A stretch of DNA of 64,000 bases from a virus (lineage: Duplodnaviria > Heunggongvirae > Uroviricota > Caudoviricetes): positions 23,495 through 87,494 of the IMG/VR virus record IMGVR_UViG_3300025597_000613, one strand, 5' to 3'. Positions within the stretch are counted from its first letter, which is position 1. Every line of letters begins with the position of its first letter. The notes below the pieces were generated by a model. That model was not told the origin of the DNA, ran no database searches, and worked only from the letters and a program-made list of their open reading frames with translations. Positions 20,801 through 62,407 of the stretch are shown one piece after another. A program made the position numbers and the translations under genes.

Positions 20801-20804
20801 TCCA

Positions 20805-21896: not shown

Positions 21897-21956
21897 GTAA
21901 AGTTCTCCTTGGTTGGTTGGGTTGAGCTAAAAACGTATGTCACTATTATGTATGTG

Positions 21957-45676: not shown

Positions 45677-45690
45677 ACAACACTAATTTG

Positions 45691-47135: not shown

Positions 47136-47370
47136 CTACTTTTATATATTTTCTAAAATCGTATTTCCACATAGGATACGATAATACATATCCTGTCCAA
47201 CCCTCGTCTGTAAATATAAAATACAGATAATGTTCAATGCTTCCCTCTTCTGTCCAATCTATATAGATTTCTTCTGCCCAGGTTCTCACAGTTTCGTCAA
47301 TATACCTGAAAGATTTTTCGAGAGATTTTTGGTCTCTCGGGTTATAGGGACCGCATTTGTATATAATCAT
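47023..47370 (-). CDS. hypothetical protein (start trimmed to ATG abutting QueE stop)
   Basis: ORF 47023..47427 in a different frame from 46899..47135; frameshift or sequencing error possible. Confidence 0.3.
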   Translation of the reverse strand: MIIYKCGPYNPRDQKSLEKSFRYIDETVRTWAEEIYIDWTEEGSIEHYLYFIFTDEGWTGYVLSYPMWKYDFRKYIKVDAVLESAETLPRISVENSSGPEGRNFLCHGDDVVVQK

Positions 47371-48245
47371 GCAAGGCTTGCGTACAGATGCATTTGAAGA
47401 TTGAGTCTTAGTCCGTGCTGAATACAATACTTCGCAGTGTATTCGTGATTTTCTTGATTAGCCTTCAGATTAAGAAGACCTGGTTCCCAGAAACTAATTA
47501 CTTCATCTACAGTTGATCTTTCATCTAATGTGATATTACCTTGCTTTTCAGAACGCAATAGCTTGATCTTCTGAGGGAAAGTATTGTAGATGTTCATGGG
47601 GCTGACATAGATTTCTTTCTTAGGATTGCTGAGTCTCCATTCAAGTGCCCAATCAGGAATGGTGTTGTATGGATTGCCAGGTTCAGCAGTCATAACAAAT
47701 TTCAAACAGTCCGCACGTTCAAGAATAGTTTTTGATGGTGCAAGATACTTTACCGCTACACCATTCTTTTCTACACACTTTGGGCTGCATACAAGTGTAA
47801 CACCCGCCGGAACGGTAGTATCAAGAATACCATTGCTCTCAACCTGTACTGCACCAAAATGCTCCAACTGTCTCTGCATGAATGCACTAATATTATCCTG
47901 TAGCAATGGTTCGCCACCCGTCATAACAAGTACCACTCCTGGATAGTTATTGAAACCATTTACGGCCCAGGTAGGTGCAGATTCACCTTTGTCATTCCAG
48001 AAGTTGCAAATTGTTTCATACATTTTACTTTCTATCTGGGTGGTATTTAACCAGTCACCATCATCGAAGAATGTATCACAGAAACTGCAATCAAGATTAC
48101 ATTTTGCTAATCTAATAAACAATGCAACTTTTCCAGCGTGTGGGCCTTCGCCCTGCAATGTGAAAAACATACTTGTTACAAAAAGACTATCGGCGGGTGC
48201 ATCCTTAAAGAATTTCTTGCCTACAATTTCATTGGTACCAAACAT
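47367..48245 (-). CDS. queE: 7-carboxy-7-deazaguanine synthase QueE (radical SAM)
   Basis: FFTLQGEGPHAGKVALFIRLAKCNLDCSFCDT aligns with the QueE N-terminal signature (TLQGEG...FIRL.GC..C..CDT). Confidence 0.85.
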   Translation of the reverse strand: MFGTNEIVGKKFFKDAPADSLFVTSMFFTLQGEGPHAGKVALFIRLAKCNLDCSFCDTFFDDGDWLNTTQIESKMYETICNFWNDKGESAPTWAVNGFNNYPGVVLVMTGGEPLLQDNISAFMQRQLEHFGAVQVESNGILDTTVPAGVTLVCSPKCVEKNGVAVKYLAPSKTILERADCLKFVMTAEPGNPYNTIPDWALEWRLSNPKKEIYVSPMNIYNTFPQKIKLLRSEKQGNITLDERSTVDEVISFWEPGLLNLKANQENHEYTAKYCIQHGLRLNLQMHLYASLA

Positions 48246-48835
48246 TATTCTTTTGCTCCTTTTAGCTTATCCATAATTTTAGATGCTTCCCATAGATAAG
48301 TCAAGTCATCTGCTGAAAGCGGCCCCTTATCTTTAGATATAGCAATAATTTCCTCAAACACGGTATCCCTCATTCGGCGTTTTGTACTTGCTGTTATGCC
48401 GGCGGCCATTTCTCCACCGATAGAAACTGCCTTTCCGAAAGCTTCTGCAGCCTCGTCGACATTGATTTCCTTAGCCCATTTAACTGAACCATCTCTTTCA
48501 AGTCGCACAATTTCTTGATTATTGGTACCATGCAAGGCAAATATAGACAATGGCGGATTATATCCAACGGTTGTACCCATTCCTAGAGCACCTGTACCAT
48601 ACGCTGTCGTAAAAATGGGGGCGTTTACGCCGCCAGCCATTGCGACCCCGGTTGCATTTATTGTAGGGGCAGGTGCTGCATTTGTTACAACACTTGTGAT
48701 ACCGGTATTATAGGCATGTGTAGGATAATGTGTAGGATAATTCGTCATAGTAGGAACTGCCTTCTCTTTAATTGGTGTCTTCTTTACGGTTAAAGATGTA
48801 ATAAGTTTCTGAAAAATTTGTTTCGGATTAAGCAT
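48245..48835 (-). CDS. hypothetical protein with Thr/Ala/Gly-rich low-complexity segment (196 aa)
   Basis: minus-strand ORF. Confidence 0.4.
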   Translation of the reverse strand: MLNPKQIFQKLITSLTVKKTPIKEKAVPTMTNYPTHYPTHAYNTGITSVVTNAAPAPTINATGVAMAGGVNAPIFTTAYGTGALGMGTTVGYNPPLSIFALHGTNNQEIVRLERDGSVKWAKEINVDEAAEAFGKAVSIGGEMAAGITASTKRRMRDTVFEEIIAISKDKGPLSADDLTYLWEASKIMDKLKGAKE

Positions 48836-49112
48836 TTGTACGCATCCATTTTAGAACTCTTTCTTTCTTGGCAATCTTTGCCTTTTCGAGTCCTTCTTCG
48901 GTAATACCAATACCTGCTTCTCTGCACATATCAATCATTGCTAATACATCTCCCAATTCCATTTCTAGGTTTTGGAGATTATTTAGCCCATCACCGGATT
49001 TGCGGTTCAATAAACCGAAACGCTTTATCTTAGATGCTGCCTGAATAACTTCGGAGCATTCCTCTTGAAGGATTTCAAGGCATTCCTCTTGGTGGTCAGT
49101 TAAATGACGCAT
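48828..49112 (-). CDS. MazG-like nucleotide pyrophosphohydrolase (small all-alpha NTP-PPase)
   Basis: EECLEILQEECSEVIQAASKIKRFG matches the MazG EExxE...A...FG helix motif. Confidence 0.5.
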   Translation of the reverse strand: MRHLTDHQEECLEILQEECSEVIQAASKIKRFGLLNRKSGDGLNNLQNLEMELGDVLAMIDMCREAGIGITEEGLEKAKIAKKERVLKWMRTNA

Positions 49113-50061
49113 ATTTCTTCTCCCATCCGAGGGCATGTTCAAGCATGTCCTCGATATTGTAATTTGGAGCCCAATCTAATACAGATTTTGCCCTATGAAT
49201 ATCGGCGGTTAATACAGCTGGATCCCCCGGTCTTCTTTCCTTATAAGAAATGTTTAGTTTCTTACCGGTTAGTTTTTCAGCAAATTTTACAAGAGTATAT
49301 ACACTGATTCCCACTCCTGATCCGAGATTTAGAGTTTCGCTACCCTTATCTCCACATAGAAATTCTACGGCCAAAACATGAGCATTGGCAATATCGGCAA
49401 CATGGACATAATCCCTTACACAGGTCCCGTCAAATGTATCATAGTCATTGCCATAGATAGAAAATTCCTCTCCAGTTAGAATTTTCTTACAGAGAATGGG
49501 AATAACGTGAGTGGCGGGATTCTGTACATATCCAAATCTTAGGGACGGATCGGCACCAGCGGCATTAAAATATCTGAAATTTACATATTTCAATCCGTAT
49601 GCCTTAGAATAATCTCTGATCAACAATTCTCCCGCCGCCTTGGTTGAGGCATAGGGATTGATTGGTGAATATGGGAGAGTTTCGGGCAGTAAAGCACTTC
49701 CACCCTGCGAACCATAAATTCCGCCGCTAGAACTATAGATGATTTTATTCATGCCTAGCTCAACCATCTTGTCAAGCATAACCTTCATTTTTACCACATT
49801 ATTTTCGTAGAATTCAGAGGGAATTTCTGTGCTCTTATGCACAATGTGATCCGCTGCTAGATGTATAACCGTATCGAATTTTTCCTCTAGATTATTGAAG
49901 AATTCTGCATAGTCAATAACCTTATAGAGTCCTGCCGGCATATGTCTCGGATTTTCACGATCAACAATTGTTATATCGTATCCGCGGGCGGCCAGCGCCC
50001 AGGCAGTCTGATTTCCTATAAATCCACCGCCGCCTGTAATGAGTATCTTATTGTTCACCAA
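49096..50061 (-). CDS. NAD-dependent nucleotide-sugar epimerase/dehydratase (GalE-like extended SDR)
   Basis: ITGGGGFIG Rossmann motif; catalytic YASTKAAGE (YxxxK). Confidence 0.75.
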   Translation of the reverse strand: MVNNKILITGGGGFIGNQTAWALAARGYDITIVDRENPRHMPAGLYKVIDYAEFFNNLEEKFDTVIHLAADHIVHKSTEIPSEFYENNVVKMKVMLDKMVELGMNKIIYSSSGGIYGSQGGSALLPETLPYSPINPYASTKAAGELLIRDYSKAYGLKYVNFRYFNAAGADPSLRFGYVQNPATHVIPILCKKILTGEEFSIYGNDYDTFDGTCVRDYVHVADIANAHVLAVEFLCGDKGSETLNLGSGVGISVYTLVKFAEKLTGKKLNISYKERRPGDPAVLTADIHRAKSVLDWAPNYNIEDMLEHALGWEKKYASFN

Positions 50062-50278
50062 CCGTCATCCTTTCGATAATCTTGTAGGCCTCAAAAGCCT
50101 CTCTTAGTGCAGGGTACTTATCGAGATGCACGGCCGGCGGATCAATAATCAACAAACGACGTTCTACCTTTCGCAGGCGTTCTTCGATATCCATAACAGG
50201 ATACTTGTTATTTTGCCCACTGTATGATTTTGACCAAGCTATGGTTTCTGAATCAAAATCACTTTCCATGATTTTCAT
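50048..50278 (-). CDS. hypothetical protein, tandem paralog (KYPALREAFEAYKIIER)
   Basis: homologous to the adjacent ORF 50259..50543. Confidence 0.4.
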   Translation of the reverse strand: MKIMESDFDSETIAWSKSYSGQNNKYPVMDIEERLRKVERRLLIIDPPAVHLDKYPALREAFEAYKIIERMTVGEQ

Positions 50279-50543
50279 TTACCAACCTCTCAATAATTTT
50301 ATATTGTTCGTATGCTTCTTTTAGGGCAGGAAATTTATCATGCAATCCAAAGGACGGATGAAGAATTGCAAGTCGTTCTTCGATTTTTTCCATCCTTAGA
50401 TTTAGCTCATTGAATTCCCTATTATTTTTCAAATCCAATTCAATTGAACTCCAGCTTGCACCATTTCCGACGCCGTTAGATATAAGAACCCCGTTTCCTG
50501 CTGTAAGTGTAGGAACGCCGTGCCATGCTTGATTAGTCGCCAT
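50259..50543 (-). CDS. hypothetical protein, tandem paralog (KFPALKEAYEQYKIIER)
   Basis: shares IEERL...LHDKFPALKEAYEQYKIIERL block with 50048..50278. Confidence 0.4.
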   Translation of the reverse strand: MATNQAWHGVPTLTAGNGVLISNGVGNGASWSSIELDLKNNREFNELNLRMEKIEERLAILHPSFGLHDKFPALKEAYEQYKIIERLVNENHGK

Positions 50544-50841
50544 ATTTTATCCTAAACATTAATGCATCATCCGGATCTTCAAATCCTATATAGACGCAAT
50601 CGATATAATTTTGATTTATTGAAATTGATCCTTTGGAATTTTTATTCAACCACATTATCCATTCGTAGGAATCAATAGCATCAATAACTCTCTTCTTTAA
50701 AACAACCTTATACTTTTCGTCGAACCCCGGGGTTACTTCTTGAGGCTTGATATTTTCTTCTTGATGAGGTTCTTCTGCAATGGGCTTAGGTGGTCGTAGA
50801 AAGTCAAACCATTTAGGTGATCTAATTCGTGTTGGAAACAT
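50533..50841 (-). CDS. small protein, EDA-FK motif family (member B)
   Basis: C-terminus VYIGFEDPDDALMFRIKYGD; first 36 codons overlap the 3' end of the PDF gene, no alternative start before Met63. Confidence 0.35.
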   Translation of the reverse strand: MFPTRIRSPKWFDFLRPPKPIAEEPHQEENIKPQEVTPGFDEKYKVVLKKRVIDAIDSYEWIMWLNKNSKGSISINQNYIDCVYIGFEDPDDALMFRIKYGD

Positions 50842-51248
50842 ACTGAATCTAATCCTTGGAGGGTAAGCTCAAAGAATTCTCCATTTTCGTCCTGTGCCAT
50901 GATGTGTATCTTATTAGGTCTTTTCACATAGGCAAAGATATCGGGGAAACTTAGGCACCCTTCTCTCCATCTTTCTGTATCCTTAGCATCAATAATTTCC
51001 GGATTAATGAATACCCTGCGTTTTTGACCACTATTCGATGTATCGGTGACAAATATTCTTTTTGTTACTCCGACTTGATTTGCCGAAAGACCCACACCAT
51101 TCTTGTTGTACATTGTAATGAACATATTTTGAACAAGTTCTTTTAGTTCATTATCAAATACAGTCACGGGTTCGCAGATTTCCTTAAGAATAGGATCCGG
51201 AAAGATCCTAATCTCTAGAAGCTTCGGCTCAGGTAATTCTACTGTCAT
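50733..51248 (-). CDS. def: peptide deformylase
   Basis: all three PDF motifs: GVGLSANQVG, EGCLSFP, QHELDHLNG. Confidence 0.85.
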   Translation of the reverse strand: MTVELPEPKLLEIRIFPDPILKEICEPVTVFDNELKELVQNMFITMYNKNGVGLSANQVGVTKRIFVTDTSNSGQKRRVFINPEIIDAKDTERWREGCLSFPDIFAYVKRPNKIHIMAQDENGEFFELTLQGLDSVCFQHELDHLNGLTFYDHLSPLQKNLIKKKISSLKK

Positions 51249-51592
51249 ACTCTATATGATAGGACAGCACCGTTTTCCGCGTCTTCACTTACTTCGACAT
51301 CAATACCTCGACCTGTGTATTTCTTTGAAATATAATCAATCAGGTCTTCTGCAAGCATTTCGCAGCTCTTATAATCCATTTGCAGTGTGTTGGAACCATA
51401 GAGTGCCTCGAGTTCTCTCTTGAATAGGATGAACTCAATATCTCTATCGTTATGGAACACATCGATGGTTACCCTGAAATGAAAAATGTGCCTATGTGGA
51501 TAGGCCAAGAATTCAACACCCTCAGGGGCGGCCGGGTATTTGTGAATACCCTCTTTCTGAAATGTTACAAAGATTTTTCTTTTGCTAATCAT
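51245..51592 (-). CDS. queD: QueD-like 6-carboxytetrahydropterin synthase (PTPS fold)
   Basis: FVTFQKEGIHKYPAAPEG...YPHRHIFHFRVTI parallels QueD F.FEAAHRLP.VPEG...LHGHSF.V.LEI (HRH in place of HGH); ~115 aa. Confidence 0.6.
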   Translation of the reverse strand: MISKRKIFVTFQKEGIHKYPAAPEGVEFLAYPHRHIFHFRVTIDVFHNDRDIEFILFKRELEALYGSNTLQMDYKSCEMLAEDLIDYISKKYTGRGIDVEVSEDAENGAVLSYRV

Positions 51593-52410
51593 TATTGTGC
51601 CTTCTTCTTGCCCTTAGCCTTAGTCCCCGCTTCCGCGTATGCTTCTGCAGCTGATTGAGGTGACGATGGAACTGCCGTATCTTCATTTGCTTTTTGAACT
51701 TCATTTGGATCGGGCTTTAGTTGTGATTTCGAATTAGGATCAAGACCTAAAGAACCATCATTCTTCATTTCGTCTTTGATCTTATCGAGAACAGTTTCTG
51801 TAATTTCAGCATTACCTGTGTCAACAATAGTGGTGGTTTTCGGAACGGGAACTCTCAGTCCGCCCGCCCAACCTGTGGGGCCTGGATCAACTACTACTGT
51901 ATTTTCAATGACTACATCACTGCCATAATCCTGCCAATCAGTGAAACGATTGCTATCTGTTACTTCATGCCAGTGTAGACACCATACACCGGGATTCGTT
52001 GCCTTGAAATCAACATCATCAATTTTTACTGTAAGGTTGACACTTGATGTCTGTACCTTAGGAATACGAACTCCTAACAAAGGTACAAATTGACGGCATT
52101 GCCAGATACCCGGATTTAGCATCTTTAGAACATGTTCATGTTCATGTGCTTGATAATCAAGAGTTACCCAATATCCGAAGTCAAGCATTGCTGTAATAAC
52201 TTCGTTCCAATATGGATCTTCCGATGCCGAATTAAACGAATGATTGGCACCCATAAAGATGTGTGAAACTTTATGTTCCTGTGCAAGTTTTCTAATGTCA
52301 GCAATTGTTTGCTTACCTACCACAAATAGTGTCTTTCTAGAATATGCGGGAGTATGTTCAACTTCCGGTCCAATGAAAAACTTTGTATTGTTATGACCTT
52401 CTCTGTTCAT
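51592..52410 (-). CDS. hypothetical protein (272 aa) with Thr-rich/acidic C-terminal tail
   Basis: minus-strand ORF between QueD-like and GT genes; no motif recognised. Confidence 0.45.
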   Translation of the reverse strand: MNREGHNNTKFFIGPEVEHTPAYSRKTLFVVGKQTIADIRKLAQEHKVSHIFMGANHSFNSASEDPYWNEVITAMLDFGYWVTLDYQAHEHEHVLKMLNPGIWQCRQFVPLLGVRIPKVQTSSVNLTVKIDDVDFKATNPGVWCLHWHEVTDSNRFTDWQDYGSDVVIENTVVVDPGPTGWAGGLRVPVPKTTTIVDTGNAEITETVLDKIKDEMKNDGSLGLDPNSKSQLKPDPNEVQKANEDTAVPSSPQSAAEAYAEAGTKAKGKKKAQ

Positions 52411-52411
52411 G

Positions 52412-52600
52412 TTAGTTCCTATCTGAAAATTCTACCAATCGAATTTTAGTGTCATATTGATCACTAAAACCATCATTCCTTAATGCTTCCCTGAGATTTT
52501 CGAGAACGTCCTCGCATCCAGAATTTCCCGAATCTGCAAGGTTTTCCCAATATTCATCATTACCCTCAGTAATAACAATTTCAAAAACGTATCTCTTCAT
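52412..52600 (-). CDS. hypothetical acidic small protein
   Basis: start trimmed to ATG abutting stop of upstream ORF. Confidence 0.35.
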   Translation of the reverse strand: MKRYVFEIVITEGNDEYWENLADSGNSGCEDVLENLREALRNDGFSDQYDTKIRLVEFSDRN

Positions 52601-52806
52601 TATACACCCATCGCCATCTTGAAAACAATGGCATCCTCGCCTTTTGAAAAATAAAATTCGGAATAATTTGAGAAGGGACACCAGGCCCAGCAATTATCCT
52701 GCCTGTACCTGTTGAATTCACCGAATTTCTCTACGCAAAATCTTACCGCAGATACTACAGTATCGTTCGGAATCTTACATATTATTATGCGAGAATTTTC
52801 TCGCAT
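52600..52806 (-). CDS. small protein, EDA-FK motif family (member C)
   Basis: C-terminus FYFSKGEDAIVFKMAMGV; start trimmed to clear the GT gene. Confidence 0.3.
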   Translation of the reverse strand: MRENSRIIICKIPNDTVVSAVRFCVEKFGEFNRYRQDNCWAWCPFSNYSEFYFSKGEDAIVFKMAMGV

Positions 52807-52810
52807 GCCT

Positions 52811-53989
52811 TCAATACTTTGGACGAGCAACATGCTTTCTGTAATCGTTATTATTTCTTGCCCACTGCTGACCGCCACCTTCTAGAATATCAATGGTGCG
52901 ATCAATGGTTCCATTTTGCCAATCACTTACGGCACCGGTAGAATATGCCCATGGCGACAATATCATGCTTCTAAGTCTCATATTGGCATCCTGGATGCTC
53001 CATGGGATATACATATTATCGGCATTATTGGCGAACACCTCTGGAAAACTTCTATATGCAGGATAAAGAGTCAGTGTGCCAAAGGTATCGGCCTCGCTAA
53101 CGGTGTTGCTTACCCAATCCTGTAATGCACAATTGAACAGAACCATGCTATTGGATAGAAGTGTGTAATAATCATTCTTCTTCAATCCTGTGTAGATTTT
53201 GAAATTAGCCTTGTCACTTCCCTGCAATGCTAGGGCGCGTTCCACTAATTCGTGATTATTACTCTTTAGTTCGGGATGACCACAAAACACCGCAAACTCT
53301 ACATCGGGCGTATGTTTATAGAATTCTTCTGCAAGATCCATATAAAAATGCGGTTGCTTCTCATCGTCCCAGCGTGCTGCAAACCCGACGCGCCTAGTTC
53401 TCTGTGTGATGTCTTTAGGTGCAGGAATACGACTACGTACTTCATCTTTACCAAACGGCAAGCCAGTCACATAGATTGGGGCAGTCATGCCTGCAATGCG
53501 CAGATGAGCTACCATTTCTTCACTAGCCACAAGTATACCAGTAACAAATTCGTCAACCATCTGTTCATATTTTCTCATCCAATGAGCCATTCCCTCACGG
53601 TTCACGAAATCGTCTGGATCGATAGTTTGTGCAAGGCATCTAACATAAACCATGGGACGATATTCTGCAGGAACCTGTTCAAGAATATATGGTAGACTTT
53701 CAATACCCGGAGTATACATATCTTCATAGAAGATGACGTCTTCGCTTGTAACCTTACCTTCTTTCATCAACTTAATAAGATTTGCAGTTTGATGAAGACT
53801 GTAGAAGGTACGACCATGGGCATCAAGAACACTACCGGTAACAATTTTCTTATCTGTGGTTAATTCCATGCCGGTAATGCATTCATAATCAATTCCGCGT
53901 AGTTTGAACACACGCTCATTCCAATCTTGCAATTGAAGTGTGTAACGACTTTCATAAGATTCAAGGCCCATATACCAAATTTTTCGCAT
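52811..53989 (-). CDS. putative glycosyltransferase (GT-B-like)
   Basis: ~390 aa; weak GT-B features (RVGFAARWDDEKQPHF mid-protein, C-terminal E-x7-E-like SEADTFGTLTLYP); assignment tentative. Confidence 0.35.
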   Translation of the reverse strand: MRKIWYMGLESYESRYTLQLQDWNERVFKLRGIDYECITGMELTTDKKIVTGSVLDAHGRTFYSLHQTANLIKLMKEGKVTSEDVIFYEDMYTPGIESLPYILEQVPAEYRPMVYVRCLAQTIDPDDFVNREGMAHWMRKYEQMVDEFVTGILVASEEMVAHLRIAGMTAPIYVTGLPFGKDEVRSRIPAPKDITQRTRRVGFAARWDDEKQPHFYMDLAEEFYKHTPDVEFAVFCGHPELKSNNHELVERALALQGSDKANFKIYTGLKKNDYYTLLSNSMVLFNCALQDWVSNTVSEADTFGTLTLYPAYRSFPEVFANNADNMYIPWSIQDANMRLRSMILSPWAYSTGAVSDWQNGTIDRTIDILEGGGQQWARNNNDYRKHVARPKY

Positions 53990-54011
53990 TAGTAGTTCTC
54001 CAGTTCTATGT

Positions 54012-54959
54012 ATGATAAATATTTATAGATTGTTACAACTGTATAGGTATTATTTCGTTATGTCAACAAAGAAGCTCACACAAGATACTTTCATCTCTCG
54101 CTGTAAAGAAATACACGGAGATAAATTTGACTATTCCCCGGCAGTCTATAAAAACATGGCCACAAAGGTGCAGATTATATGCCATTCTTGTAATATAGAG
54201 TGGGAGGTAACGCCTGCAAATCATATACATCTGAAATCCGGATGCCCACAGTGTAAGACAAATAAACATCAAATTAGGATGAATTCTGCAGTCCTCTCTA
54301 CTGAGGAATTTATTTCTCGCTCTAAAGAAATGCACGGCAACAAATTTGACTACTCAATGTCCGAATACAGAGGATCTAATACCAAAATAAAAATTCTTTG
54401 TCCTATACACGGTGAGTTTGAACAATGGCCGCAGGATCATATGAACGGTCGCGGTTGTGAAAAATGCAGTGGTGTAAAAAAGAAAACTACTGAAGAATTT
54501 ATTTCTCAGGCTAAAAGTATTTTCCCGCAATTTGACTATTCACTTGTGGAATATGTAAATGCACATACTCCAGTAAAAATTATTTGTCCTGAACACAACG
54601 AATTCCTTCAAAAGCCTAATGCAATCTTGAATCATATAGGTTGCGAGAAGTGCGGCATTGAAAGAATGTTACAGACCAAAATAGAAAGAAAAATTATTGC
54701 CGATCCTGCAGATAAAACTGAATATGAAAACTATCGTAGAAAAGTTTGGAGAATTTCAAATCAACAATATAAACTACACAAAGATAAAATCAATCCAGAA
54801 AATTTGCCACGAAGTTTGAAATATCATCTAGACCACATCTATTCAATTCAACAGGGATGGGTAAACGGAAAACCAGCTGAAGAAATTGGGCACTGGACAA
54901 ATCTTCAAATATTGGAAGGTACTGAAAATAGGAAGAAGGGAAATAAACTTATTATTTAG
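54012..54959 (+). CDS. HNH homing endonuclease with three tandem zinc-ribbon DNA-binding repeats (plus strand)
   Basis: three repeats EEFISx...HGxKFDYS...CxxHGEF...GCxKC, then C-terminal HNH (HLDHIYSI...NLQIL...NRKKGNK); opposite strand to neighbours. Confidence 0.7.
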   Translation: MINIYRLLQLYRYYFVMSTKKLTQDTFISRCKEIHGDKFDYSPAVYKNMATKVQIICHSCNIEWEVTPANHIHLKSGCPQCKTNKHQIRMNSAVLSTEEFISRSKEMHGNKFDYSMSEYRGSNTKIKILCPIHGEFEQWPQDHMNGRGCEKCSGVKKKTTEEFISQAKSIFPQFDYSLVEYVNAHTPVKIICPEHNEFLQKPNAILNHIGCEKCGIERMLQTKIERKIIADPADKTEYENYRRKVWRISNQQYKLHKDKINPENLPRSLKYHLDHIYSIQQGWVNGKPAEEIGHWTNLQILEGTENRKKGNKLII

Positions 54960-55281
54960 GATATACATCGCAAACCCATAATTTTTTCTTATTATTGGCG
55001 TCGTAGATTATATATCTTCTACCATGATCGTTTTCTATCCAATAATGGGTGGCTGATTGCCCGTAGCATTCTTTGACCGCTATTTCAAATTGATTCATGT
55101 AATCTTTATTATTCCAGTCATCGGCGAGGTGATCAAAAACCATATGGCAGGTGAAGTCAAAAACAGGGTCATCTCCCTTTAGTGTTCTTGCTAATTTCTC
55201 GTGTTCAAAAAATTTCGGGTCCGATACCAAATTAAGAACTTCTTTAGGTAATTTGCGTGTCCATGTGCCCATATATGTCAT
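54952..55281 (-). CDS. hypothetical protein (109 aa)
   Basis: minus-strand ORF. Confidence 0.4.
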   Translation of the reverse strand: MTYMGTWTRKLPKEVLNLVSDPKFFEHEKLARTLKGDDPVFDFTCHMVFDHLADDWNNKDYMNQFEIAVKECYGQSATHYWIENDHGRRYIIYDANNKKKLWVCDVYPK

Positions 55282-55574
55282 AATCTAAAAATCATCCTAA
55301 CATCATTATCAATAAATGTTGAATTTGCTGATTCTGGGGTAAGAAATCCATAAGGAATATATATCTCTACAAATTCCTCATATGGATCTTCTATCACAGT
55401 TGTTTTTGTCTTCCAATAATCAATTTCTGTATCTAAAGATTTAGTCTCATTATCACGTATATAAACAATTGAATAATCCGTGCTAACAACTATTCTCTTA
55501 TAATTTTGATTTGCAGGATCATTCAACAATGCCCTTGCACCCTGAATCTTGTTTGCCGTTACCTGTGTATTCAT
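55278..55574 (-). CDS. hypothetical protein (98 aa)
   Basis: minus-strand ORF, 4-nt overlap. Confidence 0.4.
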   Translation of the reverse strand: MNTQVTANKIQGARALLNDPANQNYKRIVVSTDYSIVYIRDNETKSLDTEIDYWKTKTTVIEDPYEEFVEIYIPYGFLTPESANSTFIDNDVRMIFRL

Positions 55575-55915
55575 TGGTCTTCGTCCTTTTTATATTCTGG
55601 TCTTATTGTGAAAATTTTGCCCGTAGATTCCTGCATTGGTTGAACGCCCATAATTTCATGTGCAATAGTTCCGGGTATTATTCTTCTAATCATCGGCATT
55701 ACGATTTTTTCAAAATCAGAAATTACCGGCTTCGGTGGTGCAGCAAGACGACGAACAATTTCATCTGCTTCCTCCTCCTCGGTCATTGCGGCTTTCTTAA
55801 GATTGACTTCCTCGATAAGAAATTTTCGATGATTCTCTAGTATTTCTTTACTTAGATCATCAAGGCTGTCAATCAAGCTTTTCTTGGTCGGATCATATTT
55901 AGCAGTGTCAGTCAT
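55571..55915 (-). CDS. hypothetical protein (114 aa)
   Basis: minus-strand ORF, 4-nt overlap. Confidence 0.4.
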   Translation of the reverse strand: MTDTAKYDPTKKSLIDSLDDLSKEILENHRKFLIEEVNLKKAAMTEEEEADEIVRRLAAPPKPVISDFEKIVMPMIRRIIPGTIAHEIMGVQPMQESTGKIFTIRPEYKKDEDQ

Positions 55916-56159
55916 TGCTACCTGCGTATTTCAAAATATATGCTGTTGCCTCTTCTCCAGATAACAAGATTGTCTGGTTTGAATACACAAGATGCCCATC
56001 GCCACGGTAATAATAATCCTTCTTGATGGGTTTTACCCTCATCATTTTTGGATTGAGTCTAATTACCTTGCATACCTGCAATAAATTCTTATGGGAAACT
56101 GCTACATAGTTTCCTTCTTGTATAGTCTGCCCTAATATGTCGAGGTGCCTTTCCGCCAT
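55908..56159 (-). CDS. hypothetical protein (83 aa)
   Basis: minus-strand ORF. Confidence 0.4.
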   Translation of the reverse strand: MAERHLDILGQTIQEGNYVAVSHKNLLQVCKVIRLNPKMMRVKPIKKDYYYRGDGHLVYSNQTILLSGEEATAYILKYAGSND

Positions 56160-56404
56160 GTCTCTAAATCCTTCATTATTTCTGCATCAATTTCTGCCGA
56201 AATTTCCTGCGAAAGTATTTCACTTATTACCTTAGCAAGTTCTGCTGCCTTTTCAGCATCAAGTTCTTGTTTGGTTTTCGATAGTTTACTGACAATTTCG
56301 TCAGCTTGCGACTCATCCGCGGGATTTATGTCAGCTGAGCTCTTCGACGGTGTATCCGTTAAAGGTAATCTCGAAATCAGGGAGTTCCAATCTATCCCAG
56401 TCAT
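56132..56404 (-). CDS. doubtful small acidic helical protein
   Basis: N-terminal part is Ser/Thr-rich and overlaps the 2H phosphoesterase gene by >70 nt. Confidence 0.2.
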   Translation of the reverse strand: MTGIDWNSLISRLPLTDTPSKSSADINPADESQADEIVSKLSKTKQELDAEKAAELAKVISEILSQEISAEIDAEIMKDLETWRKGTSTY

Positions 56405-56789
56405 TTGGTGCGTCAGAGGCGACAGTGATGTGCGCGATGTATTCCGGGTAGTCATGTGTTGCTCCGTGTTTTTCCATAAACAGTTCATGCAATCTTGTTG
56501 CATTGGGACAATAAATTTCGAGAACCAAGACTTTCTTGTCTGTCCCTAAAACTTTCCAACCAATTGGTAATGCCTGACATGGTAGTCCAAAATCTTCTCT
56601 TGCGACATCGGAACACTCTGTCTTACTGTAGATTATTGTACAGTGATATTCATCGGAATCCACAAGATTTTCGATGCCTTGCTTCACACAAAAATTCAAT
56701 AATTCTTCGCGTGATTCGACTGATGGAATTAAGCTTGAATAGGTACCGCCAGGATGTGCAGATTCAAAAAGGTAATCAATTTTCTTCAT
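56331..56789 (-). CDS. 2H-superfamily phosphoesterase (Acb1-like / LigT-like cyclic phosphodiesterase)
   Basis: two H-x-T/S-x motifs (YHCTIIYS, AHITVASD) ~72 residues apart; 152 aa. Confidence 0.55.
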   Translation of the reverse strand: MKKIDYLFESAHPGGTYSSLIPSVESREELLNFCVKQGIENLVDSDEYHCTIIYSKTECSDVAREDFGLPCQALPIGWKVLGTDKKVLVLEIYCPNATRLHELFMEKHGATHDYPEYIAHITVASDAPNDWDRLELPDFEITFNGYTVEELS

Positions 56790-57003
56790 ATTTTAATATC
56801 TCAAATTCATTTTTTGCATAGAGAACCTTTGTATCACCATAGTAATTTTTATATGTTCTCTTGTATAGAATACCTATACTGCTATTTCCGTCGATTGTTT
56901 TTACCGGAATGACACGGAATGTCTTTGTCCAGGAGGTCACTGGATGAAGACGAAAAATATTGGCACCATCTGTTACGGGTGGTGGGACCGGTACCCAGGC
57001 CAT
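56776..57003 (-). CDS. hypothetical protein (75 aa)
   Basis: minus-strand ORF. Confidence 0.35.
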   Translation of the reverse strand: MAWVPVPPPVTDGANIFRLHPVTSWTKTFRVIPVKTIDGNSSIGILYKRTYKNYYGDTKVLYAKNEFEILKYEEN

Positions 57004-57473
57004 TAGAAAAATCTAGCCTTCTCGGGATCTTCGAAACCAGCAAGCTTATTTCTTGTCTTTTCTTGCTCTGCCCAATCGTATTCTTGATTAATGCGCTTAC
57101 GAAGATATTCTCTTATGGTACCTCTTTCATTCCAGATAAATTTCTCAAATCTTGTAAGACCGTTGCAAGGGCAATCAACTACAAAATTAATTCCGTTGAG
57201 CTGTTTTCCAGAGATTCCGTCAAGATCATAGTGTAGGATAACACCTTCGGGATTTTTTGCATGTTCCGTCCTGCAGTATTCTTTCCATCTTTCTCTATCA
57301 TCCTCTATGCTGTTTGTATCAGCATAATCCGGCGGGCCGTAACTGGTTTCTGGGCAAAGGTGTAATCTTCCACACCAACCACACTCCATGTCAGCAGAAC
57401 CCACCCCGAAATCAATGGAATATACAAACATATCCGATGGGGCTTCGTCGTCGGTTTTGTACTTCTTCGACAT
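57003..57473 (-). CDS. hypothetical Cys-containing protein (156 aa)
   Basis: ATG with AAGGA SD; CGWCGRLHLCPE ... DCPCNG motifs. Confidence 0.4.
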   Translation of the reverse strand: MSKKYKTDDEAPSDMFVYSIDFGVGSADMECGWCGRLHLCPETSYGPPDYADTNSIEDDRERWKEYCRTEHAKNPEGVILHYDLDGISGKQLNGINFVVDCPCNGLTRFEKFIWNERGTIREYLRKRINQEYDWAEQEKTRNKLAGFEDPEKARFF

Positions 57474-57729
57474 CGCTATTCCTTATAATATCAAAGATAG
57501 TTTCTTTGTACTCATATTCTGGTGTACCGAAAAGTCTATCTATCCAGTGATATTGTGTATACCCTATTTGGCGACGATAAACAAATTCCAACCAGACTTT
57601 CCCATCGCCGACTCGGACAGGATACCATGCAAACCATTTATACCAATTACAATATTTGTAATCTTTATTCTTGATTTTCCACTTCATGATTTGTATCTTT
57701 CTTATAATCTTTCCATATTTGATAGACAA
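57412..57729 (-). CDS. hypothetical protein (105 aa)
   Basis: minus-strand ORF. Confidence 0.35.
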   Translation of the reverse strand: MSIKYGKIIRKIQIMKWKIKNKDYKYCNWYKWFAWYPVRVGDGKVWLEFVYRRQIGYTQYHWIDRLFGTPEYEYKETIFDIIRNSDVEEVQNRRRSPIGYVCIFH

Positions 57730-57787
57730 TGAGCACCGTAATGAGTACCATGGAAATCATAGCGAATAATGTCAATAAAGCTGCCAT

Positions 57788-58630
57788 TTAGACCTCAAAC
57801 TTTCTTGCTTCTTCAAAAGTAACTTTGAATCCAGATGCTGTAGCATGTCCGCCACCACCAAATTGCTCTGCAATTTTGGCAACATCTATTCCGTCTGGCG
57901 TTGATCGCAAACCAAAAAACCTCGCATCGGGTTGATCGTAATAATATGCTGCAAAAGGCTCGTTTTTACACAGTGCAGAACAAATATCCGATCCGTATTG
58001 GTACGTAACATTTGCAGCAGGAATATTATATCCCGCTATATTCAAGCGCCGCACGACCACACCCATCAATTCCTTAACGTCTTTGGCCATTCTGCGTTCA
58101 ATCGCAGTACCTTCCTTGATTTGTTCGTCGAGAGATTGATTTACCAATCTATCCCAATTCTCGAAGGTATATTCATAACTGTAGACGTTGGCTTGGATTT
58201 CTCTGGTTCCGGGCAATAAGAATTTCCAGCGATCTCTATCGTCAATGTGTTTGATAAATTGTGGTACAGGATTTGTAGGGAAGAAATACTTCCAGGCAAG
58301 CATTGCACCGCTCTCAGTATTTTCCGGACTGTAAAATTTCTCCAGGTTTGGTGGATTAAAATCCTTCAAATCCTCGATAGCACTAATGTGATGGTCAATG
58401 TGAATTATTGCCCTTGCCTTTTTGGCTAGTTCTTCCATTACAGGCTTCTTATAACTGAAATCTACAATGTAGACTATCTTGTCAGTTACATCCGGTGGTG
58501 CATCTTTGTAGAAACCGGCGTGAAATTCTATTTCACCCTGTGATAATCTTACAACCCATGCAGCGGTAAACCCATCAGCACAATTACCATGATATATACA
58601 AATTTTCTTAGTCATTCTTTCTTTCTTCAA
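57788..58630 (-). CDS. DHH/DHHA1-family phosphoesterase (NrnA-like nanoRNase/pAp phosphatase fold)
   Basis: DGFTAAWVV, IHIDHH (DHH), C-terminal GGGGHATASGF (DHHA1 GGGH). Confidence 0.75.
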   Translation of the reverse strand: MKKERMTKKICIYHGNCADGFTAAWVVRLSQGEIEFHAGFYKDAPPDVTDKIVYIVDFSYKKPVMEELAKKARAIIHIDHHISAIEDLKDFNPPNLEKFYSPENTESGAMLAWKYFFPTNPVPQFIKHIDDRDRWKFLLPGTREIQANVYSYEYTFENWDRLVNQSLDEQIKEGTAIERRMAKDVKELMGVVVRRLNIAGYNIPAANVTYQYGSDICSALCKNEPFAAYYYDQPDARFFGLRSTPDGIDVAKIAEQFGGGGHATASGFKVTFEEARKFEV

Positions 58631-58829
58631 CTACCTGCATTGATACGGAAGAAAATGCATCAAATCTTTCCTTATTTGCCTCAATAAAGCGTGCTGCAAG
58701 AAGTAATGAAATTCCTTCTGTACCACCAATGCCGTAATTTTGAATATTACGTGTATACTCTTTCTGTGCCCAATCGAGAGCCTTTATTGTTTCATCGGCG
58801 GTTACCGGATATTGTAAAATATTTCTCAT
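58608..58829 (-). CDS. hypothetical protein (73 aa)
   Basis: minus-strand ORF. Confidence 0.4.
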   Translation of the reverse strand: MRNILQYPVTADETIKALDWAQKEYTRNIQNYGIGGTEGISLLLAARFIEANKERFDAFSSVSMQVVEERKND

Positions 58830-59026
58830 TTTCTTTTCCCTCGTATAGTTTTATGTCTTATACCGGAGGCTCTAAAATCTTTCCCACTTGCGAATTTTGG
58901 ATTGCAATTAGCAAAAACTGAATGGGCCATAATGAGCCCATTCAATAATCCGTGCATGTAATCATGTTGCGATTTGGGATATGGCGGGACGCAATTTCTC
59001 TGGATAGAGATTAGGTTCTCTACCAT
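58826..59026 (-). CDS. hypothetical small basic protein
   Basis: start trimmed to ATG with AAGGGA SD, clear of DpdA stop. Confidence 0.35.
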   Translation of the reverse strand: MVENLISIQRNCVPPYPKSQHDYMHGLLNGLIMAHSVFANCNPKFASGKDFRASGIRHKTIRGKRK

Positions 59027-59048
59027 CTTAATTCCCTTTTGTAACCTA

Positions 59049-60617
59049 TTACTCATCGAGATTGATAAGATCTTCCTTATCGAGACTTGCAAGTTCTTCG
59101 ACGGTAGGTACGTGTTCTTCGTTACCTTCCTCTTCACCACCGAATAATGATTCAAAAGTGGTTACTGCCTTCTTGTCGCCGAAGCTGACATAGTCAAGGA
59201 ATGCCTGATTCTCCTTCAACATAGTATACGGATCTTTATTTGAGGGGTCAAGAAGTTCTTCTACGAAATTATTAAAGAATAGAATTGAATTAGGGACAAA
59301 ATCACTAATGTTGGTTTGCTTCTTCTTATCTCTCATTTGATACCAGTCTTTGTAACTGATATTTTTACGAACTGCATATTCGATGTCAGCTAATCTATTG
59401 ATTTCCTGAACAGCCTGAATGTGGTTGTAGACATTATGCGCCATTACCAATGCATAGGTAGTGGTATCCCAGCTTGTCTTACCAATCTTGTCTTGCTTGT
59501 TCTTATCGGTGGGACCCATTACGCACATATCACCAGTTGTCAAACGTTCCATAATTGGGCCCTGGAATGGCATTGCATAATCTGTGCCTTTAAGTCCCTT
59601 GTCGTCGAGGCCGCGGCCCATTGCGTATGTTAGCTGATCTGGCTTGAAATAATTGTAGTTATAGGACAATGCATAGCCACCCGCTGCCACAAATGGGCTT
59701 GCAGCGTCAAAGCTGATGTTGACATTAGGATTATCGTGCTTCCTCAATAATCTCTCAATGGATGTCAAATAGCATGCCCAATCAAGTCTACCAATGCCCA
59801 AGAAGTGAATCCAGTCCTTGCCTTCGAGGAGACCGTCCCTGCGTAGATCAAGCATTCGTTCAAGAACAGTTTTCATGTTCTTCATGTTAATACCTGCAAA
59901 TGCATAACCTTCCAGAGTATGGTTACGTGGATAGCCCATTAATTCTACGGAATCTGGATTACTGAAATGCTTAACTTCCTCGTACCATTCTTTAGAATTT
60001 TCATTATCGCTACCAGATAGGACATTTAGGAATTTTGTCTTTCCCGGAATTCTATTCTTGATAAAATAATGCAGATTGTGGACAGAGATATCCAGCGTAT
60101 CTTCAAATTTAGTCAATCCTGTTTTGGCACTGAGTGGTGGCTTGGCCGCAAAGGCAGGAACATCCAGCGTCATTGACCAATCTGCTGTGTGTTCGAGATA
60201 ACGAAGAATTTCTTCCCTGAGCTTGTCACCTTCGGGGCCCTTCACTGTTGCCCAATCCAGTTTAATAACACCGGTAGCGATTTGGAATCCACCCGAGTCA
60301 CCGATGAGAATAGTTTTCTCCCGATCGCGCTCGTGGATCATAGGTTCCCTCTTGTCACATTTATCAAGATTTCTCTCTGCGTGACCTGCCGAATACAATC
60401 CAAATTTGTAATTGAAGTAACTACCTTCTTCCTTCAGAAAATTAAGGCCTTCGATTCCATATTCGAAATTCTTTGGAATACGCTCAGCCGGAATAAAATT
60501 CGGATCTGATTGTGCCTTTCCGAGATGTGTAGTATAGAAGCCACTAATTGCTGGGAGATATTTTGCCCATCCGCCAGCCAGATGTCTTTCTGTGAAATTT
60601 ACTCTGTTTTTTGTCAT
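59049..60617 (-). CDS. dpdA: TGT-family transglycosylase, DpdA-like (DNA 7-deazaguanine insertion)
   Basis: ILIGDSGGFQ matches TGT catalytic-Asp motif (LTDSGGFQ); FLGIGRLDW resembles TGT LMGVGKPEDL; co-located with QueE/QueD-like genes. Confidence 0.6.
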   Translation of the reverse strand: MTKNRVNFTERHLAGGWAKYLPAISGFYTTHLGKAQSDPNFIPAERIPKNFEYGIEGLNFLKEEGSYFNYKFGLYSAGHAERNLDKCDKREPMIHERDREKTILIGDSGGFQIATGVIKLDWATVKGPEGDKLREEILRYLEHTADWSMTLDVPAFAAKPPLSAKTGLTKFEDTLDISVHNLHYFIKNRIPGKTKFLNVLSGSDNENSKEWYEEVKHFSNPDSVELMGYPRNHTLEGYAFAGINMKNMKTVLERMLDLRRDGLLEGKDWIHFLGIGRLDWACYLTSIERLLRKHDNPNVNISFDAASPFVAAGGYALSYNYNYFKPDQLTYAMGRGLDDKGLKGTDYAMPFQGPIMERLTTGDMCVMGPTDKNKQDKIGKTSWDTTTYALVMAHNVYNHIQAVQEINRLADIEYAVRKNISYKDWYQMRDKKKQTNISDFVPNSILFFNNFVEELLDPSNKDPYTMLKENQAFLDYVSFGDKKAVTTFESLFGGEEEGNEEHVPTVEELASLDKEDLINLDE

Positions 60618-61401: not shown

Positions 61402-61626
61402 TTAAGCCTTTCTTTCCCATCCTAATTTAATAAGAAGCTTTTCGTGCTCTGCACTAAAATCATCGTATGTCCAGCCATATGCTGCTAATTTTTCTACAAT
61501 ATATGGTCGAAACAATATTTCTGGCCGAAATGTATTGGGATTTATTATTACCCAACTATCCTTGTTTAGAACTGAAACAAAGGGCTCTCGTTGCAGTCTT
61601 CGAAAAGTATCACCCTCGTTCGTCAT
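61402..61626 (-). CDS. small protein, DTF-motif family member
   Basis: MTNEGDTFRRLQREPFVSV...YGWTYDDF. Confidence 0.4.
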   Translation of the reverse strand: MTNEGDTFRRLQREPFVSVLNKDSWVIINPNTFRPEILFRPYIVEKLAAYGWTYDDFSAEHEKLLIKLGWERKA

Positions 61627-62348: not shown

Positions 62349-62407
62349 GTTTTCCCTTTCTGAAAAGATTCTGTAGTGTAATGAATTTTGTTTTGAATGT
62401 CAACGTT

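Follow-up and report, generated by a model that had tools for sequence, protein, structure and literature searches.

The locus raises the question of which base would replace guanine in the DNA of this phage, and which enzymes would make and insert it. Modifying DNA with 7-deazaguanine is one of the main ways in which phages counter defences, and such systems are searched for by their signature gene, DpdA. The original prediction named three ORFs, encoding QueE, a PTPS/QueD-like protein and a TGT-like protein, in the window (the whole 64,000-nucleotide stretch of DNA analysed), and all three are present at the given coordinates, on the minus strand. Our reading is that this gene set would probably swap guanine in phage DNA for a 7-deazaguanine base, with the DpdA-like enzyme inserting it after replication; host-nuclease protection is the most likely role of the replacement. 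It is a known kind of system, but its DpdA clade is unrecognised and its conserved partners are undescribed.

QueE, DpdL and the predicted product

QueE, the 7-carboxy-7-deazaguanine synthase, is encoded at 47367..48245 on the minus strand (292 aa) and matched PHROG 2076 'QueE-like radical SAM' with an E-value of 2.9e-46. It carries FFTLQGEG...CNLDCSFCDT, containing the QGEG motif and the canonical CxxxCxxC radical-SAM cluster, and its only matches among PDB sequences were the three QueE proteins with solved structures (E. coli 6nhl, E 1.2e-11). The protein is 43-51% identical to annotated phage QueE (ACP17, Phosso, Dinoroseobacter phages), and its best NCBIfam score of 72.9 bits lies below the equivalog cut-offs of 200-300. 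It is a divergent phage subtype.

The gene first taken for a PTPS/QueD-like protein (51245..51592, minus strand, 115 aa; PHROG 17812) was identified as DpdL, a QueD paralogue and proposed CDG decarboxylase. It is 40% identical to gp040 (CGPG_00067) of Cellulophaga phage phiST (tblastn E 6e-13), 53% to ACP17 gp125 and 50% to PA5oct EST35_0318. In DpdL, LxxxHRHxF replaces the QueD signature CxxxHGH (PMC10516641), and alignment with phiST, ACP17 and Phosso shows the FLAYPHRHIF of the window protein to be the DpdL form. Of the predicted trio, QueE and the TGT-family protein with DSGGFQ stood, and the QueD-like member was replaced by DpdL. When a T-fold (PF01242) relationship was looked for, DpdL gave no Pfam match and no PDB match, and a small profile comparison with QueD was weak (probability 6%); HHpred gave 99.9% for phiST DpdL (PMC10516641).

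DpdL co-occurs with QueE and the DpdA-like gene, with QueC absent from Pfam calls over 7.8-64 kb of the window. BLASTP with phage references found neither FolE nor QueD in the whole window, and none of FolE, QueD, QueC and QueF was present in precomputed Pfam calls, which cover 7.8-64 kb of the window and beyond (1-7.8 kb uncovered) and are the sole basis for the absence of QueC and QueF. The original prediction had also found FolE and QueC missing from the window, and this was borne out, for FolE by BLASTP and Pfam and for QueC by the Pfam calls.

Because the third gene is DpdL and there is no QueC/Gat-QueC, the predicted product is a CDG-derived 7-deazaguanine (dDG-type), and the preQ0/dADG/dG+ product first proposed is not supported. 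In the proposed route, FolE and QueD, supplied by the host or encoded elsewhere in the ~240-390 kb genome, would turn GTP into CPH4. By homology, the phage QueE would make CDG (7-carboxy-7-deazaguanine). DpdL, whose putative activity is a literature proposal, would then decarboxylate CDG to 7-deazaguanine, diverting it from QueC.

The DpdA-like transglycosylase

The insertion step would be carried out by a 522-aa DpdA-like guanine transglycosylase (59049..60617, minus strand) from an unannotated clade of the TGT/DpdA superfamily. The AF2 model of the protein is of medium confidence (pLDDT 75) and has the (beta/alpha)8 TGT fold. The nearest structure is the DNA preQ0 insertase DpdA (PDB 7ui4), and the best 50 Foldseek matches were all TGT, with TM-scores of 0.42-0.46. 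The predicted catalytic residues are D107 (in DSGGFQ), D152 and D304. When the family profile was compared with E. coli TGT by hhalign, these residues aligned with all three catalytic Asp motifs, which we take to be D89 in DSGG, the substrate Asp D143 and the nucleophile D264. Across 61 diverse members D107 and D304 never vary, and D152 is conserved in at least 90%. The profile also matched ACP17 DpdA and a BUDD gene annotated as queuine tRNA-ribosyltransferase with 95-96.5% probability. At the sequence level the relationship to TGT is remote, seen solely via profiles and structure.

No match to PF01702 (TGT) was found for the window protein at E≤0.01, nor for its PA5oct, Vibrio and ACP17 homologues at E≤0.1, and PF20314 (DUF6610, DpdA4) gave no Pfam match in the window protein. 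No CxCxxC...H motif like the zinc site of TGT was seen in the sequence; the sole conserved Cys after D304 is C365, and the profile alignment ends before this region. An identity with DpdA3 was rejected: the family HMM gave E 4.6e2 against phiST gp042 and 5.9e2 against immuto gp206, hhalign gave 70.7% and 18.4%, respectively, over part of the protein only, and the window protein is twice as long as the ~260-aa DpdA3.

A search of 185,579 bacterial and archaeal genomes gave no close relative, and the clade is therefore phage-specific at close range. Its members fall into 908 clusters at 50% identity and over 6000 at 90%, and most come from jumbo-phage contigs. Pfam, PHROGs and NCBIfam did not detect it, so surveys built on those libraries would miss it and its true spread may be understated. 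In Vibrio phage 2.275.O the homologue (32% identity) lies beside QueF, a YhhQ-type transporter, QueC, FolE and QueD.

From the fold, the active-site conservation and the gene context (que/dpdL genes and PolB nearby, and PA5oct DNA that resists restriction), we infer that this enzyme inserts 7-deazaguanine into DNA. By a TGT-type mechanism in which D304 is the nucleophile and D107 the acid/base, it would exchange guanine for the deazapurine in double-stranded phage DNA after replication. It is very improbable that the TGT-like enzyme and QueE instead put a queuosine- or archaeosine-type base in phage or host tRNA, tuning translation as auxiliary metabolic genes. The window does encode tRNAs and RNA repair (tRNA-Met, tRNA-Arg, RtcB and an RlmN/Cfr-like methyltransferase), but the phage tRNAs have no GUN anticodon, QueA, QueG, QueC and QueF for queuosine are lacking, and DpdL leads away from preQ0/preQ1. 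Furthermore, the best structural match is the DNA-acting DpdA, the gene is linked to the DNA polymerase block, and it is the DNA of PA5oct itself that resists G-site restriction enzymes (PMC12191111).

The syntenic module and its partners

Genes within 10 kb of the DpdA-like gene were counted in 47 related viral contigs with enough flank (complete loci). DpdL, a GT-B glycosyltransferase and a 272-aa protein (w272) were present in 47/47, GalE in 39/47, QueE in 37/47 and FolE in 23/47, and the DpdA-like gene itself is the most conserved member (80/80 loci). This co-location is far beyond chance. The genes had been described as dispersed in a metabolic island; instead, they make up a fixed module, syntenic in all 47 contigs, that lies among the replication genes (PolB ... 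RNaseH). The predicted 7-deazaguanine DNA-modification system around a DpdA-like transglycosylase and QueE is supported.

The module is framed upstream (61623..63967, minus strand) by a 241-aa protein and the 3' part of a family-B DNA polymerase, and downstream (44621..46709, minus strand) by a 240-aa protein and a 5'-3' exonuclease/RNaseH (Pfam 5_3_exonuc_N); both frames are context, outside the chemistry. The 241-aa protein lies upstream of the module in 79/80 loci, and the Phosso gene at the equivalent position is annotated as sliding clamp. The downstream order is the same as PA5oct 0324-0325. In the window the module is interrupted by lineage-specific insertions, namely peptide deformylase, HNH endonuclease, Acb1 and DHH phosphoesterase.

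The GT-B (GT4-like) glycosyltransferase-like protein (52811..53989, minus strand, 392 aa) is the invariant partner of DpdL and the DpdA-like gene. It matched Pfam Glycos_transf_1 (PF00534) at E 4.4e-4 and 20.3 bits, below the 26.4 cut-off, and precomputed PF00534 calls are found on some of at least 8000 homologues. Its family profile matched GT4 structures in the PDB at E 8e-4 to 0.25, including GlgM 6tvp (E 7.7e-4), WlaC, RfaG and WbaZ. R206, K211, E299 and G304 were invariant when the donor-binding R/K...K and ExFG motif were sought. The gene adjoins DpdL or lies within ~3 kb of it in PA5oct, ACP17, BUCT-ZZ01, BUDD/X1, BCSR5 and Phosso, being directly adjacent in PA5oct, ACP17, BUCT-ZZ01 and Phosso, and this proximity holds in seven separate phage lineages with gene order otherwise shuffled.

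w272 (51592..52410, minus strand) lies directly upstream of DpdL and overlaps it, and consists of a conserved ~170-aa N-terminal alpha/beta domain followed by a low-complexity Lys-rich tail. GalE, a UDP-glucose 4-epimerase (49096..50061, minus strand, 321 aa), matched Pfam Epimerase at E 2e-47 and NCBIfam TIGR01179 galE with 299.4 bits, above the cut-off of 262.3. A small MazG-type nucleotide pyrophosphohydrolase (48828..49142, minus strand, 104 aa; PF03819, E 9e-6, 26.3 bits with the cut-off at 22) is found in 13/47 loci. The 196-aa protein immediately upstream of QueE (48245..48835, minus strand) has no family match and its module membership is uncertain; it is lineage-specific, occurring in 18/47 loci and each time just before QueE. 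Both w272 and the 196-aa protein had been flagged as candidates for missing or novel steps: the former proved to be a core component, while nothing was seen to link the latter to the chemistry. The glycosyltransferase and GalE, the partners with the tightest linkage, had gone unnoticed in the original prediction, as had MazG.

The small MazG may serve to cut back the canonical nucleotides that compete. In an alternative, pre-replicative route, MazG removes dGTP, and the free deazapurine is made into a nucleotide by a phosphoribosyltransferase (PRTase), phosphorylated, reduced and incorporated by the phage polymerase; the TGT-like protein would then act on the base or nucleotide, or in proofreading or salvage, and not on DNA. 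We consider this route unlikely. A PRTase (PF00156) lies inside the module in ~20/47 related loci, as well as in PA5oct (EST35_0321), BUCT-ZZ01 (XGPRT) and the DpdA3 cluster of Flavobacterium phage immuto. The window and phiST both have a MazG, nucleotide kinases occur in the phiST, immuto and Phosso clusters, and replacement is 100% in those DpdL or DpdA3 phages for which measurements exist (PMC10516641). However, the window and its closest lineage carry the module without PRTase, and the DpdA-like gene is the most conserved member and has a complete TGT catalytic set. The PA5oct restriction pattern has been read as motif-dependent (GA/GG), and PA5oct looks only partly modified (PMC12191111), which fits post-replicative insertion.

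In the favoured reading, insertion after replication, the glycosyltransferase, GalE and w272 are obligate partners of the set and are taken to act in the same pathway, where they might, for example, add a hexose from UDP-Gal to the base or the DNA, or make insertion possible. They hint at a further modification, possibly sugar-bearing. It is conceivable, if rather doubtful, that they are unrelated neighbours (e.g. for cell-envelope or virion glycosylation) and that QueE, DpdL and DpdA form the unit, with plain dDG as the product, like that of phiST. No glycosyltransferase was detected in phiST, a dDG maker, 8/47 loci lack GalE, and w272 was not detected in BUCT-ZZ01, BUDD and Phosso. Against this stand the glycosyltransferase in every locus counted, its closeness to DpdL across shuffled lineages, and the finding that dpdA and dpdL of ACP17 gave no dDG in E. 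coli (PMC10516641).

We propose only tentatively that the invariant quartet of DpdA-like protein, w272, GT-B and DpdL, with GalE support, makes an undescribed hexose-bearing 7-deazaguanine DNA base. The hexose may be galactose from UDP-Gal, and it could be attached before insertion, while the base is free, or once the base is in DNA. If so, w272 and the glycosyltransferase would be the 'missing enzymes' that explain the inactive ACP17 pair, and a sugar-bearing deazapurine would be the modified G in jumbo phages like PA5oct and in thousands of relatives from the environment. Plain 7-deazaguanine offers a glycosyltransferase no obvious acceptor, which counts against our main reading, as do the remote sequence link to TGT, the zinc motif not seen, the lack of FolE and QueD in the window, the inactive ACP17 pair and the motif-dependent pattern of PA5oct.

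Neither the glycosyltransferase nor w272 was previously tied to 7-deazaguanine chemistry. Their fixed association, together with GalE, provides candidate genes for the unexplained failure to reconstitute dDG synthesis and raises the prospect of a new, sugar-bearing modification of purines. Clade members include PA5oct, a candidate for phage therapy, and Paride, which kills dormant cells; in both, modified G is shown only indirectly. A new base would matter for restriction, for the specificity of glycosylase and END-nuclease defences, for nanopore sequencing and for enzyme tools.

Comparison with known systems

In phiST, a DpdL carrier whose dG is fully replaced by dDG, the system is FolE-QueD-QueE-MazG-DpdL-DpdA3 (Hutinet et al. 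2023, PMC10516641). phiST and the window share QueE, DpdL with LxxxHRHxF, a MazG in the cluster (beside DpdL in phiST), a remote TGT-fold protein, an adjacent DNA polymerase and the absence of QueC. In contrast, the window lacks FolE and QueD, and its 522-aa transglycosylase has DSGGFQ intact and belongs to a family whose HMM misses the ~260-aa DpdA3 of phiST and immuto. The window module also adds GT-B, GalE and w272. The 16-kb que/dpd locus of phiST showed none of the three, and tblastn across the whole phiST genome did not find GT or w272 either.

The cluster gp119-gp126 of Acidovorax phage ACP17 contains QueD, FolE, gp122, dpdA gp123, gp124, dpdL gp125 and QueE. It shares with the window a contiguous four-gene core of w272 homologue (gp122), DpdA (gp123), GT homologue (gp124) and DpdL (gp125), and a QueE of the same subtype (43% identity). 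ACP17 DpdA is a remote, 424-aa relative (hhalign 96.5% to the window family, HMM E 4.5e-6). Unlike the window, ACP17 encodes its own FolE and QueD, and GalE was not found in its 16-kb locus.

A 'deazaguanine synthesis/incorporation system' has been noted computationally in the Pseudomonas jumbo phage PA5oct (Wroclawvirus) (PMC7824862), in which the module genes are all annotated as hypothetical. Experiments indicate that PA5oct DNA is G-modified, and nucleases targeting G-modified phages restrict this phage (PMC12191111). In its locus EST35_0316-0322 the DpdA-like gene (EST35_0316, 52% identical to that of the window), GT (0317), DpdL (0318) and then QueE lie between PolB and RNaseH. The w272 homologue is 26 kb away from the other three core genes, which are clustered. 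PA5oct differs from the window in its PRTase, a truncated epimerase-like gene and another QueE subtype.

Compared with bacterial DpdA/Dpd (PDB 7ui4) and TGT, the window protein does not match PF01702, lacks DpdB/DpdC partners and shows no Zn motif, and it is extended by ~100 residues at its N-terminus and by a helical part at its C-terminus. preQ0, the substrate of bacterial DpdA, is not its predicted substrate. In huimycin/dapiramicin-type pathways, a GT4-type glycosyltransferase attaches a sugar to a free 7-deazapurine base by N-glycosylation (bioRxiv 10.64898/2026.04.15.718813). These are actinomycete secondary-metabolite clusters without DpdA, and their likeness to the phage module is in gene content: a GT-B glycosyltransferase is encoded with CDG/preQ0 biosynthesis genes in both. 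They set a precedent for a sugar on a 7-deazapurine.

A phage-restricted transglycosylase clade

The protein originally predicted to belong to the tRNA-guanine transglycosylase (TGT) family is a DpdA-like protein of 522 amino acid residues with a DSGGFQ motif, encoded at window positions 59049-60617 (-). Sequence searches of Pfam, PHROGs, NCBIfam and PDB gave no match for it, and PDB searches with the protein and its close-family profile returned noise only. The link to TGTs was therefore drawn from structure and profile-profile methods. An AF2 model was built with 26 homologues (pLDDT 75, pTM 0.79), and the best 50 Foldseek matches of this model in the PDB were all tRNA-guanine transglycosylases. 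A profile of 61 members (25-54% identity) was aligned with E. coli TGT by hhalign at 87.5% probability (E 3.6e-6). DSGGFQ was paired with DSGGFQ (D89), TLDVP with FDEC (D143) and SFDAASP with MFDCVMP (D264) of the TGT, aspartates which we take to be the acid/base, substrate-binding and nucleophile residues, respectively. S76, G78, D107, S108, G110, P154, H271, G274 and D304 are invariant in the 61-member alignment. No TGT-type zinc motif was seen in the 522-residue protein. The structural and profile matches bear out the predicted TGT membership.

An exhaustive HMM search returned 908 clusters of this family at 50% identity. The hhalign probabilities were 96.5% for the DpdA of phage ACP17, 96.1% for a gene of Xanthomonas phage BUDD annotated "queuine tRNA-ribosyltransferase" and 94.8% for a hypothetical protein of cyanophage BUCT-ZZ01. 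The defining DpdA3 proteins of phiST, a Cellulophaga phage, and of immuto, a Flavobacterium phage, were undetected by the HMM (E > 400) and gave 71% and 18% in hhalign, over a fragment only. Neither PF01702 nor PF20314 (DpdA4) matched the protein. On these grounds it is a member of the TGT/DpdA superfamily, in a large phage-restricted clade unannotated in current libraries. No close relatives were found in a prophage/bacterial scan of 185,579 bacterial and archaeal genomes. A statement by Iyer et al. credits PA5oct with a "deazaguanine synthesis/incorporation system" (PMC7824862). Others may therefore already have come across the DpdA-like gene of that phage computationally.

The window is phage-like, with nearly all genes on the minus strand and a GC content of about 40%. 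It carries two tRNA genes, tRNA-Met(CAT) at 3554-3629 (-) and tRNA-Arg(TCT) at 5299-5373 (-), neither with a queuosine-type GUN anticodon. The Rfam scan gave no preQ1 riboswitch and no family besides these tRNAs, and promoter-like sites occurred at chance level. Public metagenomic contigs, the longest of them 239 kb, encode copies 100% identical to the 522-residue protein, and its closest relatives lie on contigs of 360-390 kb, which identifies the source as a jumbo phage. No isolated phage with DNA near-identical to the window was found. Among cultured phages, the Pseudomonas jumbo phages of the PA5oct group (Wroclawvirus) come closest, with 52% protein identity; Vibrio phage 2.275.O and Sinorhizobium phage Phosso are farther off. 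GC rises locally to 0.48-0.53 at 18000-22000, against about 0.40 elsewhere, where AAA+ ATPases and a DUF2201 (VWA-like) protein are encoded. The stretch 33929-36842 (-) encodes an RtcB RNA ligase (E 8.5e-126) and, close by, a radical-SAM relative of the rRNA/tRNA methyltransferases RlmN/Cfr (97 bits, far under the equivalog cut-off); the two may act together in RNA repair or modification.

A module of recurring gene order

Window proteins were mapped onto 80 fetched viral contigs encoding relatives. The recurring order is PolB, a 241-residue protein, the DpdA-like protein, variable genes, a GT-B glycosyltransferase-like protein (GT), a 272-residue protein (w272), DpdL and small genes, followed by GalE, in some loci FolE and a phosphoribosyltransferase (PRTase), QueE, a 240-residue protein and RNaseH. 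Counts were taken over the 47 loci that extend for 9.5 kb or more downstream of the DpdA-like gene: DpdL, w272 and GT were each present in 47, GalE in 39, QueE of either of two subtypes in 37, FolE in 23 and PRTase in about 20. The modification genes had been described as dispersed in a metabolic island; they follow a fixed recurring order instead. An island of unrelated metabolic genes was rejected by the same synteny statistics.

QueE was predicted correctly at 47367-48245 (-). It has the QGEG and CxxxCxxC motifs, matches PHROG 2076 (E 2.9e-46), finds only the three solved QueE proteins in PDB sequence searches and shares 43-51% identity with phage proteins annotated as QueE. It scores far under the NCBIfam equivalog cut-offs and thus represents a divergent phage subtype. 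An unrelated QueE subtype, typified by PA5oct EST35_0322 (19427-20299 of the PA5oct locus), occupies the same module position in other lineages. Of the 47 loci, 20 have the window type and 17 the PA5oct type, and a BLASTP alignment of the two types covers only 30 residues. The pattern looks like non-orthologous replacement in place.

The ORF at 51245-51592 (-), taken at first for a PTPS/QueD-like protein, had no Pfam match. It is 40% identical to phiST gp040 and 53% to ACP17 gp125. Hutinet et al. named gp040 DpdL, a QueD paralogue with LxxxHRHxF in place of the catalytic CxxxHGH, and proposed that it decarboxylates 7-carboxy-7-deazaguanine (CDG) to 7-deazaguanine (PMC10516641). The window protein reads L-AYP-HRH-I-F, and by this motif and these homologies it is DpdL, not QueD. 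In local profile comparison, its match to QueD was too weak for confirmation of the T-fold.

The GT gene (52811-53989, -) adjoins or is near DpdL in PA5oct, BUCT-ZZ01, BUDD/X1, BCSR5 and Phosso. The PA5oct counterparts are EST35_0316 (DpdA-like), EST35_0317 (GT), EST35_0318 (DpdL) and EST35_0364 (w272). Its profile weakly matches GT4 structures, and PF00534 is carried by some of its at least 8000 homologues. The epimerase at 49096-50061 (-) scores 299 bits with the GalE equivalog model, whose cut-off is 262, and MazG at 48828-49142 passes the Pfam threshold. The gene at 51592-52410 (-), flagged beforehand as a candidate for a missing or novel step, is the invariant w272. In comparison with homologues in L056, L018 and L032, two features stand out in w272 of the window lineage (51592-51894, -): a linker rich in Pro, Ala and Thr, which is poorly conserved, and a Lys-rich C-terminal tail, which is conserved (...AEAYAxGxxxDPL...KKAKxKK). 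The tail may be a nucleic-acid-binding appendage; versions of about 170 residues in ACP17 and other lineages are without it. In some relatives GalE and FolE are separated by two added genes, one for a cytidylyl/adenylyltransferase (RfaE domain II/TagD-like, PF01467) and one for a PGDYG-domain protein (15337-15774 and 15671-16189 in locus L040), which suggests that this lineage makes another activated donor, a sugar or a polyol.

Lineage-specific insertions in the window module are a peptide deformylase, an HNH endonuclease on the opposite strand, an Acb1-like protein and a DHH phosphoesterase. The full-length deformylase (PF01327, E 3e-52; 50733-51248, -) lies directly 3' of DpdL with a 4-base overlap, a position it holds in only 3 of the 80 related loci. 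The HNH/DUF723 homing-endonuclease gene is at 54012-54959 (+); related endonucleases sit at other points of the module in L024, L046, L050 and L052, and one splits DpdL in L050. The Acb1-like protein (152 residues; 56331-56789, -) matches the anti-CBASS phosphodiesterase family PF23474 above cut-off (E 1.2e-16) and is labelled RNA ligase-like in PHROGs. In a 114-residue ORF (55571-55915, -), the C-terminal 48 residues match positions 1-48 of the profile for Gp23, the major capsid protein of T4 (PF07068, E 3e-13). It is a small stand-alone copy of a capsid N-terminal segment, and no capsid gene is near it in the window. Of the terminator-like hairpins in the region, the best (12-bp stem, then a T run; 58917-58946, -) lies about 100 nt past the DpdA-like stop, so the DpdA-like gene and the GT-w272-DpdL-GalE-QueE genes may have separate transcripts.

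Proposed pathway and precursor supply

QueE would make CDG, DpdL would convert it to 7-deazaguanine, and the DpdA-like enzyme would exchange this base for guanine in phage DNA, which could then withstand host nucleases. This pathway, of which we infer every catalytic step in the present lineage, is the best-supported model, backed by published experiments on relatives. Five G-containing restriction enzymes fail on PA5oct virion DNA, and PA5oct is restricted by nucleases specific for G-modified phages (PMC12191111); in phiST DNA, dG is wholly replaced by the 7-deazaguanine deoxynucleoside, dDG (PMC10516641). The formula of plain dDG is C11H14N4O4, with a calculated mass of 266.1 Da. Of the original prediction, 7-deazaguanine modification stands as the kind of system; insertion of preQ0, dADG or dG+ gives way with the replacement of QueD by DpdL, as does the dispersed architecture with the fixed synteny.

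The published pathway leaves the invariant GT and w272, and the frequent GalE, unexplained. ACP17 dpdA and dpdL expressed in E. coli were inactive, and the authors suggested that further enzymes are needed (PMC10516641); GT and w272 are obvious candidates. A GT-B enzyme fed by GalE suggests hexose transfer, and in huimycin-type pathways GT4-type enzymes glycosylate 7-deazapurine bases (bioRxiv 10.64898/2026.04.15.718813). From these two points, a sugar-bearing deazaguanine would be a possible, though rather unlikely, form of the modification.

For the wider family, a pre-replicative nucleotide route using PRTase, kinases and MazG is a real rival; these genes recur in 7-deazaguanine clusters. 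A purine-type PRTase, often near a nucleotide kinase or MazG, lies inside such clusters of very different phages, including PA5oct, many metagenomic relatives, immuto (DpdA3) and BUCT-ZZ01 (18922-19356 in the PA5oct locus, 10897-11451 in L073, 18850-19350 in L040, 8424-8819 in L090 and 4093-4554 in L092). Its recurrence hints at a nucleotide-level branch not used by the post-replicative model; the window itself, however, has no PRTase.

For the QueE-DpdL-DpdA-like pathway, FolE and QueD were not found by BLASTP over the whole window, and the precomputed Pfam calls covering 7.8-64 kb contained none of FolE, QueD, QueC and QueF, in agreement with the earlier report of no FolE or QueC. The loci with FolE inside the module belong to more distant clade members, and Vibrio phage 2.275.O, ACP17 and BUCT-ZZ01 encode QueD as well. 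When viral contigs were scanned for FolE, at least 80 closer matches came up, and the large contigs of this lineage were not among the matches listed. No que genes were found at 96-146 kb of PA5oct. In the window lineage, CPH4 must be supplied by the host or by genes that lie beyond the 64 kb.

Comparison with known systems

In Vibrio phage 2.275.O the DpdA-like gene adjoins QueF, a YhhQ-type transporter and QueC, so more than one deazapurine is used with this clade. The gene next after it, gene 469 (8035-9147 of locus L088), is amidoligase-like (PF12224, E 1.8e-4) and is followed by those three genes and an Ntn-hydrolase-like protein. Judged by gene content, these neighbours constitute a putative different decoration pathway on the same transglycosylase clade.

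The module merits experimental follow-up in PA5oct or ACP17. In ACP17 the core genes form a single block, gp122 (w272), gp123 (DpdA), gp124 (GT), gp125 (DpdL) and gp126 (QueE). The system is of a known type; its DpdA clade is unannotated, and its partners are conserved but uncharacterised.
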